64,000 bases of DNA from Escherichia coli (GCF_003790525.1 NZ_CP033635.1), one strand, 5' to 3'. Shown: positions 56,239 to 56,893, counted from the stretch's first letter. A program made the numbers and translations. The notes: generated by a model from the sequence alone, not told the origin.

Positions 56239-56505
56239 ATGGATATTAACAACAAAGCCCGCATTCATTGGGCATGCCGCCGTGGTATGCGCGAACTCGA
56301 TATTTCAATCATGCCGTTTTTCGAACATGAGTACGACAGCTTAAGCGATGACGAAAAACGCATCTTTATTCGTCTGCTGGAATGTGACGATCCGGACCTG
56401 TTTAACTGGCTGATGAATCACGGTAAACCGGCCGATGCAGAACTGGAAATGATGGTCCGACTCATCCAGACACGGAACCGGGAACGTGGTCCTGTGGCAA
56501 TCTGA
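56239..56505 (+). CDS. sdhE: FAD assembly factor SdhE (antitoxin CptB)
   Basis: 88-aa [35 protein letters not shown] with RGxxE motif. Confidence 0.9.
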
Positions 56506-56893
56506 TCTGCGCGTCTCCTGGCGCGCGCAGTGGCTTTCCTTGCTGATCCACGGGCTGGTTGCCGCTGTTATTTTACTCATGCCCTGGCCGCTCAGTTACA
56601 CCCCGTTATGGATGGTGTTACTTTCGCTGGTGGTGTTTGATTGCGTTCGCAGCCAGCGACGCATTAATGCTCGCCAGGGAGAAATTCGCCTGTTGATGGA
56701 CGGGCGTTTGCGTTGGCAAGGGCAGGAGTGGAGCATCGTCAAAGCGCCGTGGATGATTAAGAGCGGCATGATGCTGCGTTTACGTTCTGATAGCGGTAAA
56801 CGGCAACATTTATGGCTGGCAGCCGACAGCATGGACGAAGCCGAATGGCGGGATTTACGGCGGATATTGTTGCAACAAGAGACGCAAAGATAA
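56486..56893 (+). CDS. ygfX: inner-membrane protein YgfX (toxin CptA)
   Basis: 135-aa ORF, GTG start overlapping sdhE 3' end by 20 nt; two TM helices. Confidence 0.85.

Follow-up and report, generated by a model that had tools for sequence, protein, structure and literature searches.

Gene content of the sdhE-ygfX locus

The DNA analyzed here is a 64,000-nucleotide (nt) stretch of an Escherichia coli genome (GCF_003790525.1, NZ_CP033635.1), referred to below as the window, and the element under study is a pair of overlapping genes, sdhE (also named ygfY or cptB) and ygfX (cptA), which lie on its plus strand (Table 1). SdhE is a small soluble factor that promotes the covalent attachment of flavin adenine dinucleotide (FAD) to SdhA and FrdA. 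The preliminary description of this DNA, which was made from the sequence alone, assigned positions 56239 to 56893 to the pair and gave ygfX a GTG start codon within a 20-nt overlap. The open reading frame (ORF) list, the Pfam matches, and the annotation of E. coli K-12 bear out the gene identities, the start codon, and the overlap, and the positions correspond exactly to the two genes.

SdhE matches the Pfam family Sdh5 (PF03937; E = 5e-26, 90.8 bits, with a cutoff of 27) and, over its full length (residues 1 to 88), the NCBIfam equivalog NF008130 (198.4 bits, with a cutoff of 120). YgfX matches the Pfam family Cpta_toxin (PF07254; E = 1e-49, 168.5 bits, with a cutoff of 27.3), with residues 2 to 131 aligning to positions 1 to 132 of the 133-position profile. 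These matches indicate that both ORFs are genuine genes and not chance reading frames. The RGxxE motif is present in SdhE as R15-G16-M17-R18-E19, with G16 and E19 invariant in a 30-sequence alignment; this motif and a G16R/E19A mutant have been described previously (PMC8621075). The SdhE of the window is 100% identical to that of K-12 and is therefore expected to have the same flavinylation activity. Cotranscription of the two genes in the Enterobacteriaceae, an interaction of the two proteins, and a role in flavinylation have been reported (PMC5042078, PMC3985639).

The ygfX reading frame is +1 relative to that of sdhE. In the sdhE frame, the overlap reads (C)GT GGT CCT GTG GCA ATC TGA (R-G-P-V-A-I-stop), and in the ygfX frame it reads GTG GTC CTG TGG CAA TCT GA(T) (M-V-L-W-Q-S-D), so that the GTG at 56486 sits within the codons for Arg83 and Gly84 of SdhE (CGT GGT) and the sdhE stop codon falls at ygfX codons 6 and 7. 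The ygfX frame is bounded upstream by a TGA, and between that TGA and the GTG there is no in-frame ATG, GTG, or TTG; the later in-frame canonical start codons are a TTG at codon 19 and an ATG at codon 32. The start of sdhE is preceded by AGGAAG, a Shine-Dalgarno (SD)-like sequence whose duplex with the 3' end of 16S rRNA is predicted at -4.3 kcal/mol, and the sdhE ATG (peptide MDINNKAR) is supported by Ribo-RET, INRI, and N-terminomics data (supplement of PMC13245402).

Comparison with K-12, which had been proposed as a check, reproduces the arrangement. In MG1655, sdhE (b2897) occupies 3040804 to 3041070 and ygfX (b2896) occupies 3040416 to 3040823, again with an overlap of 20 nt, and the gene order, the GTG start codon, and the neighboring genes (ygfZ on one side and fldB, xerD, dsbC, and recJ on the other) are the same; RefSeq strain GN03551 is annotated with identical geometry. 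The differences are allelic only: one synonymous change in the 267 nt of sdhE and 13 changes in the 408 nt of ygfX, 12 of which are synonymous, the remaining one giving S103 in place of G103. The divergence from K-12 is thus distributed very unevenly between the two genes. Of 5426 complete E. coli genomes, 5425 carry the 901-nt region that covers the pair (identity of at least 95%), the median number of places being one per genome; the 47-nt junction occurs in 5420 of the 5426, nearly always with no more than one single-nucleotide polymorphism. The junction allele of the window, with C at 56507, is a minority allele (226 genomes at an identity of at least 99%). One of the approximately 5420 E. 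coli matches belongs to a record classified as plasmid, which may be a misassigned replicon or a large chromosomal fragment. The locus is the housekeeping sdhE-ygfX bicistronic operon, which is already known and has the same annotation in K-12.

Table 1. Features of the sdhE-ygfX locus, with positions counted from the first nucleotide of the window
Feature	Position	Strand	Details
SD-like AGGAAG for sdhE	56230-56235	+	3 nt 5' of the ATG; consensus match only
sdhE (ygfY/cptB)	56239-56505	+	ORF; ATG start, TGA stop at 56503-56505; 88 amino acids (aa); FAD assembly factor SdhE
TGA bounding the ygfX frame upstream	56450-56452	+	Sequence and ORF list
Probable ygfX translation initiation region	56469-56485	+	Within sdhE codons 78-82 (T-R-N-R-E); putative function
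Overlap of sdhE and ygfX (20 nt)	56486-56505	+	Sequence and ORF list; geometry identical in K-12
ygfX (cptA)	56486-56893	+	ORF; GTG start, TAA stop; 135 aa; inner membrane protein
YgfX beta-strand, aa 2-8	56489-56509	+	AlphaFold2 prediction; encoded by the overlap and the next three codons
YgfX membrane helix 1, aa 12-31	56519-56578	+	AlphaFold2 prediction
YgfX membrane helix 2, aa 36-62	56591-56671	+	AlphaFold2 prediction; forms a membrane hairpin with helix 1
YgfX beta-sandwich and C-terminal helix, aa 65-134	56678-56887	+	Predicted; six strands (aa 65-112) and helix (aa 118-134)
Imperfect inverted repeat (hairpin)	56897-56926	.	In the 39-nt ygfX-fldB spacer

Conservation of the ygfX start codon and of the overlap

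When a single genome of each species was scanned, 212 relatives were found, and the best 80 of the 212 loci, all from the Enterobacteriaceae, were analyzed. In every one of these 80 loci, the GTG of ygfX and the TGA of sdhE occupy homologous positions. In 22 of them, the upstream in-frame stop codon is missing, which makes the ORF mechanically longer, but the GTG is kept, and the RefSeq annotation of YgfX in such genera is 135 aa. The YgfX family is small, with 135 representatives at E <= 1e-3 among 1.84 billion clusters of 50% identity. The N terminus (MVxWQCxLRxS) is conserved in 36 diverse members, with S11 present in at least 90% and conserved residues extending from position 2 to position 18. 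In the window, only the GTG at 56486 allows these N-terminal residues to be encoded, which identifies this GTG as the ygfX start codon.

For more distant relatives, 11 YgfX representatives were traced to contigs and their junctions were read, with the identities to the YgfX of the window taken from alignment A1. The homologous GTG, inside an sdhE CGT-GGN, and the 20-nt overlap are present in seven of the 11, namely L085 (47% identity), L095 (43%), L086 (38%), L088 (37%), L092 (36%), L089 (35%), and L093 (27%). In L090, the homologous GTG has been lost, and a GTG 6 nt upstream is used, giving an overlap of 26 nt. In the window, in the 80 Enterobacteriaceae loci, and in all 11 distant loci, ygfX lies directly downstream of sdhE, and the order ygfZ, sdhE-ygfX, fldB, xerD, and dsbC is kept in most of the distant loci. 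The overlap is ancient and usual in the gammaproteobacterial lineages that carry ygfX, yet it is not obligatory. Conservation of the overlap, which the preliminary description had suggested be checked, therefore extends at the same position through all of the Enterobacteriaceae loci and seven of the 11 distant lineages, and the use of another ygfX start codon, which it had named as the observation that would speak against its assignment, was not seen in these loci.

One lineage (L083 and L084, from Logan SRR29213555 and SRR29213558), with a YgfX protein 57% identical in alignment to that of the window, has lost the overlap. Its SdhE is 85 aa long and ends in QQRKQ-TAA, the ygfX GTG follows after a gap of 1 nt, and fldB abuts the ygfX stop codon, with a 2-nt spacer.

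Constraint at the gene junction

In a conservation profile of 79 distinct Enterobacteriaceae sequences, the least variable part of the locus is 56469 to 56513, with 0.07 to 0.24 bits per site compared with 0.3 to 0.9 elsewhere in both genes, and the lowest entropy (0.07 bits) is at 56484 to 56498. The conservation of the overlap itself can be attributed to dual coding, and among the 79 sequences a single overlap position varies, without altering SdhE. If the N-terminal beta-strand of YgfX, which is encoded by the overlap and the three codons after it, is structurally required, this would account for the constraint seen in the ygfX frame.

The low variability continues into the sdhE-only sequence on the 5' side of the overlap. 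The mean third-position entropy of sdhE codons 78 to 82 (56470 to 56484) is 0.26 bits, compared with 1.03 bits for codons 1 to 76, and five-codon windows with values as low as this were found in none of 72 in sdhE codons 1 to 76 and in none of 123 in ygfX. The rare arginine codon CGG at R79 is invariant in the 79 sequences. Two SD-like motifs lie in this stretch, GGAA at 56474 to 56477 (-12 to -9 from the GTG) and GGGAA at 56480 to 56484 (-6 to -2), and several distant lineages carry AGG or CGG followed by AAY, which produces GGAA, at an equal distance from the ygfX start codon. Because synonymous change is suppressed where sdhE alone is coding, the bases upstream of the GTG probably include, within sdhE, the ribosome-binding region of ygfX.

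Translation of ygfX and its possible coupling to sdhE

The preliminary description also stated that the tight overlap implies translational coupling. As worded, this statement is not supported, since the spacing of the two genes is -20, compared with an optimum of -4 to +3, and no conserved inhibitory hairpin was found around the ygfX start codon; coupling is nevertheless plausible. According to a review (PMC12548453), coupling is most efficient at spacings of -4 to +3 nt, and larger overlaps reduce its efficiency faster than gaps of equal size, while the coat-lysis gene pairs of phages are still coupled at -38 and -50. The sdhE-ygfX pair resembles known coupled pairs, such as trpE-trpD (-1), the NTGA pairs (-4), and the coat-lysis pairs of phages fr and MS2 (-38 and -50), in that the two genes overlap co-directionally (20 nt on the same strand) and the downstream start codon lies inside the upstream coding sequence with a weak SD sequence. 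It differs from them in its spacing of -20, which belongs neither to the -4, -1, and -8 class nor to the long phage class, and in the absence of a conserved hairpin at the junction.

We consider it fairly probable that this housekeeping operon expresses ygfX from the GTG at 56486 by means of a weak, embedded SD sequence and that YgfX synthesis is tied to the translation of sdhE. Initiation would most likely use the weak SD-like GGAA contributed by sdhE codons 79 and 80, and the bases just upstream of the overlap would have a double role, coding for SdhE and binding the ribosomes that translate ygfX. The layout would be held in place by a two-way constraint, with the overlap encoding the N-terminal strand of YgfX and the tail of SdhE. 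Every ribosome that finishes sdhE would cross the ygfX start codon and terminate 17 nt beyond it; ribosomes on the two frames would thus have to interact, and YgfX synthesis would be tied to sdhE. The output of YgfX is accordingly proposed to be linked to sdhE translation either by a short backward reinitiation or by ribosomes whose passage exposes or blocks the initiation site.

Several observations weigh against this interpretation. The -20 spacing is outside the efficient range, which counts somewhat against coupling by lowering its expected efficiency, and the predicted anti-SD pairing at the ygfX start codon is weak (-4.3 kcal/mol). No inhibitory hairpin was found at the ygfX start codon, the fold of the 110-nt junction having a z score of -0.61 relative to shuffled sequences, and the local junction folds of 15 lineages differ from one another, with z scores of about 0 and no conserved hairpin; the model in which coupling operates through RNA unfolding is therefore unsupported. 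The literature searched contained no published coupling experiment or ribosome-profiling data on sdhE-ygfX, and in the start site literature no experimental evidence for the N terminus of YgfX was found, with ygfX not listed in the supplements examined. The 80 Enterobacteriaceae loci are not phylogenetically independent, and one of the patterns used to find the loci spans 56495 to 56521, so that amino acid conservation there is partly ascertained, an effect that spares synonymous sites and everything upstream of 56495. In addition, the overlap is dispensable in some lineages: L091 and L094 have overlaps of 14 nt and 19 nt, respectively, with ATG start codons, L083 has a 1-nt gap after its 85-aa SdhE, and Shewanella has a gap of 37 bp between sdhE and ygfX (PMC8621075).

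These observations bear on an alternative that we regard as less likely, although it deserves serious weight, in which there is no functional coupling, ygfX initiates independently, and the overlap is the frozen by-product of sdhE reading into ygfX. Such an overlap would be hard to change, since indels and most substitutions would harm the N-terminal strand of YgfX, the GTG, or the sdhE stop codon. The lone variable position of the overlap fits this explanation, as purifying selection from dual coding alone would suffice, and so do the poor reinitiation geometry of a -20 spacing, the existence of lineages without an overlap (L083 and Shewanella), and the SdhE tail beyond approximately residue 84, which has low model confidence and is outside the 6b58 construct (residues 6 to 84). 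However, the suppression of synonymous change reaches approximately 17 nt upstream of the overlap, into a stretch that encodes sdhE only, and L090, in which the homologous GTG was lost, again has an overlapping start codon, located 6 nt upstream, and not a downstream one. The suppression in the sdhE-only stretch indicates that selection maintains, within sdhE, a signal for expressing ygfX, and this signal is equally compatible with independent initiation.

Fused SdhE-YgfX proteins

The +1 offset of the ygfX frame relative to sdhE also bears on a different explanation, which we find hardly credible, in which the overlap serves a programmed +1 frameshift at the sdhE stop codon that produces a 217-aa membrane-anchored SdhE-YgfX fusion. 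Public assemblies do hold proteins of 166 to 217 aa with both Pfam domains, and prfB, the classic +1 frameshift gene, is 4.6 kb away, a proximity that has no mechanistic bearing. The fusion junctions, however, are heterogeneous, including a 1-nt deletion in the overlap, earlier frameshifts, and a 30-nt deletion, and all are singletons. The context of the stop codon (GCA ATC TGA T) has no slippery codon able to re-pair in the +1 frame, and unlike in prfB, there is no strong SD sequence 3 nt upstream of the stop codon. Programmed frameshifting was rejected on the basis of the heterogeneous junctions and the missing slippery site.

The fused proteins (P0003, P0004, P0006, P0007, P0012, and P0021) come from metagenome and Logan assemblies, with junctions such as RERG/LWQSD and RERGPV/QSDL (the slash marking the junction). 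They look like the results of isolated indels or of faulty assembly, located within the overlap or ahead of it, and do not represent a conserved fusion. The programmed +1 frameshift site of prfB is present in the window as an exact match (AGGGGGTATCTTTGAC) at 61090 to 61105 on the plus strand, 4.6 kb downstream of the pair. We take this to be the known RF2 autoregulatory site.

Predicted structure of YgfX and the toxin-antitoxin question

SdhE matches the solved structures 1x6i, 6c12, and 6b58, of which 6c12 and 6b58 are complexes with SdhA/FrdA. For YgfX, searching the family profile against the sequences of the PDB identified no relative. The AlphaFold2 model of YgfX, built from 36 diverse sequences, has a predicted local distance difference test (pLDDT) score of 94.1 and a predicted template modeling (pTM) score of 0.75 and predicts an inner membrane protein with two membrane helices and a cytoplasmic beta-sandwich domain, which tentatively may be described as PH-like. 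The high confidence of the model suggests that the N-terminal strand is structurally required.

A more far-reaching proposal, which we consider doubtful, is that selection has long maintained the exact -20 overlap and the embedded initiation site as a means of setting the ratio in which YgfX and SdhE are synthesized. In this proposal, YgfX would not be a toxin but a membrane receptor, whose PH-like domain would be completed by the N-terminal strand that is largely encoded by the overlap, and by docking SdhE it would bring this factor to the inner membrane, the site at which complex II and fumarate reductase are flavinylated and assembled. An AlphaFold2 model of SdhE and YgfX concatenated through a G25 linker (30 genome-paired sequences) had a pTM score of 0.47 and no confident interface, a result that favors neither binding of the two proteins nor its absence.

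The pair, under the names CptB/CptA, was reportedly first described as a type IV toxin-antitoxin (TA) system in E. coli by Masuda et al. in 2012, and this description is widely cited. The preliminary description referred to such a system while noting that SdhE is also a flavinylation factor. Both statements hold in that such a description exists and SdhE is a flavinylation factor, but the TA assignment is contested by the results from Serratia and Shewanella, and a core, single-copy, syntenic locus is untypical of a TA system. As a genuine type IV TA system, YgfX would inhibit the polymerization of FtsZ and MreB, SdhE would counteract it, and the overlap would place the antitoxin first and in excess, an explanation that we consider very improbable for this locus. 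It can draw on the name of the Pfam family ("Membrane-bound toxin component of toxin-antitoxin system"), on the order of a small upstream gene and a larger downstream gene, which fits the antitoxin-toxin pattern, and on the original E. coli report together with a report of a CptBA-like system in Acinetobacter, both as cited in PMC8621075 and PMC8132199. On the other side, no TA phenotype was found in Serratia, where SdhE and YgfX interact directly, which contradicts the definition of type IV (PMC3985639), and the YgfY/YgfX pair of Shewanella fails the TA criteria, as the ygfY deletion mutant is viable and no rescue was observed (PMC8621075). The pair is chromosomal, is in single copy, and is present in 5425 of the 5426 E. 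coli genomes, with its housekeeping synteny kept down to 27% identity, and the accessory, patchy, or mobile distribution that is typical, although not strictly defining, of TA systems was not seen among these genomes. The defense models of PADLOC gave no match, and SdhE has an independent structural role with SdhA and FrdA (6c12 and 6b58).

Like type IV TA systems such as CbtA/CbeA and AbiE, the pair forms an operon of two genes, one for a toxin claimed to target the cytoskeleton and the other for an antitoxin said to act on the target and not on the toxin. It differs from them in being core, syntenic, and in single copy, in having an "antitoxin" with an unrelated function in enzyme assembly, in the reported direct interaction of SdhE and YgfX, and in a TA phenotype that was not reproduced in two other genera. 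The sdhEygfX operon of Serratia sp. ATCC 39006 is similar in that a flavinylation factor is cotranscribed with an SdhE-binding YgfX membrane protein and no TA phenotype is seen (PMC5042078, PMC3985639), whereas its regulation by RsmA, RsmC, and FlhDC and its link to prodigiosin are specific to Serratia. The TA label for sdhE-ygfX is weakly supported, and the TA behavior most likely results from overexpression and does not reflect the native function of the pair.

Flanking genes and intergenic regions

Upstream of the pair, ygfZ is divergent across a 242-nt spacer, and downstream, fldB is convergent across a 39-nt spacer and is followed by xerD, dsbC, and recJ. The hairpin in the ygfX-fldB spacer has a predicted folding energy of -18.0 kcal/mol on the plus strand (z score, -3.65) and -20.2 kcal/mol on the minus strand (z score, -6.44). 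It has a U-rich tail on the minus (fldB) strand only, and its sequence is not conserved across the Enterobacteriaceae (entropy, 1.4 to 1.75 bits). This hairpin is probably the fldB terminator and possibly also terminates the sdhE-ygfX transcript; a terminator scan gave only weak intragenic terminator-like matches.

In the ygfZ-sdhE spacer, two blocks, 56034 to 56093 and 56169 to 56198, are less variable (0.56 to 0.87 bits) than their flanks (1.05 to 1.6 bits) in the 79 Enterobacteriaceae sequences, and the second block ends at a TACAAT (56198 to 56203), 35 nt 5' of the sdhE ATG. The two blocks are probably promoter or 5' untranslated region elements of ygfZ and sdhE. A simple promoter scan found no promoter-like site on the plus strand upstream of sdhE, the conserved blocks included. 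An Rfam scan of 55000 to 58000 (E <= 1) found no RNA family at the junction. A subthreshold match to RT-4 at 55835 to 55940 on the minus strand, in the 5' part of ygfZ (27.6 bits, compared with a gathering threshold of 73.5; E = 0.058), is most likely due to chance.

Implications

As a textbook core operon of E. coli with an identical annotation in K-12, the locus itself has little discovery value. Only the evolutionary depth of the -20 GTG overlap, the constraint on the bases that precede it, and the PH-like fold tentatively assigned to YgfX are mildly new. The comparative analysis adds that conservation of the GTG start codon and of the 20-nt overlap reaches well outside E. coli and that the bases just upstream of the overlap carry a clear noncoding constraint. 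Judging by the genomic behavior of the pair, the labels "toxin CptA" and "antitoxin CptB" in databases may spread an overexpression artifact.
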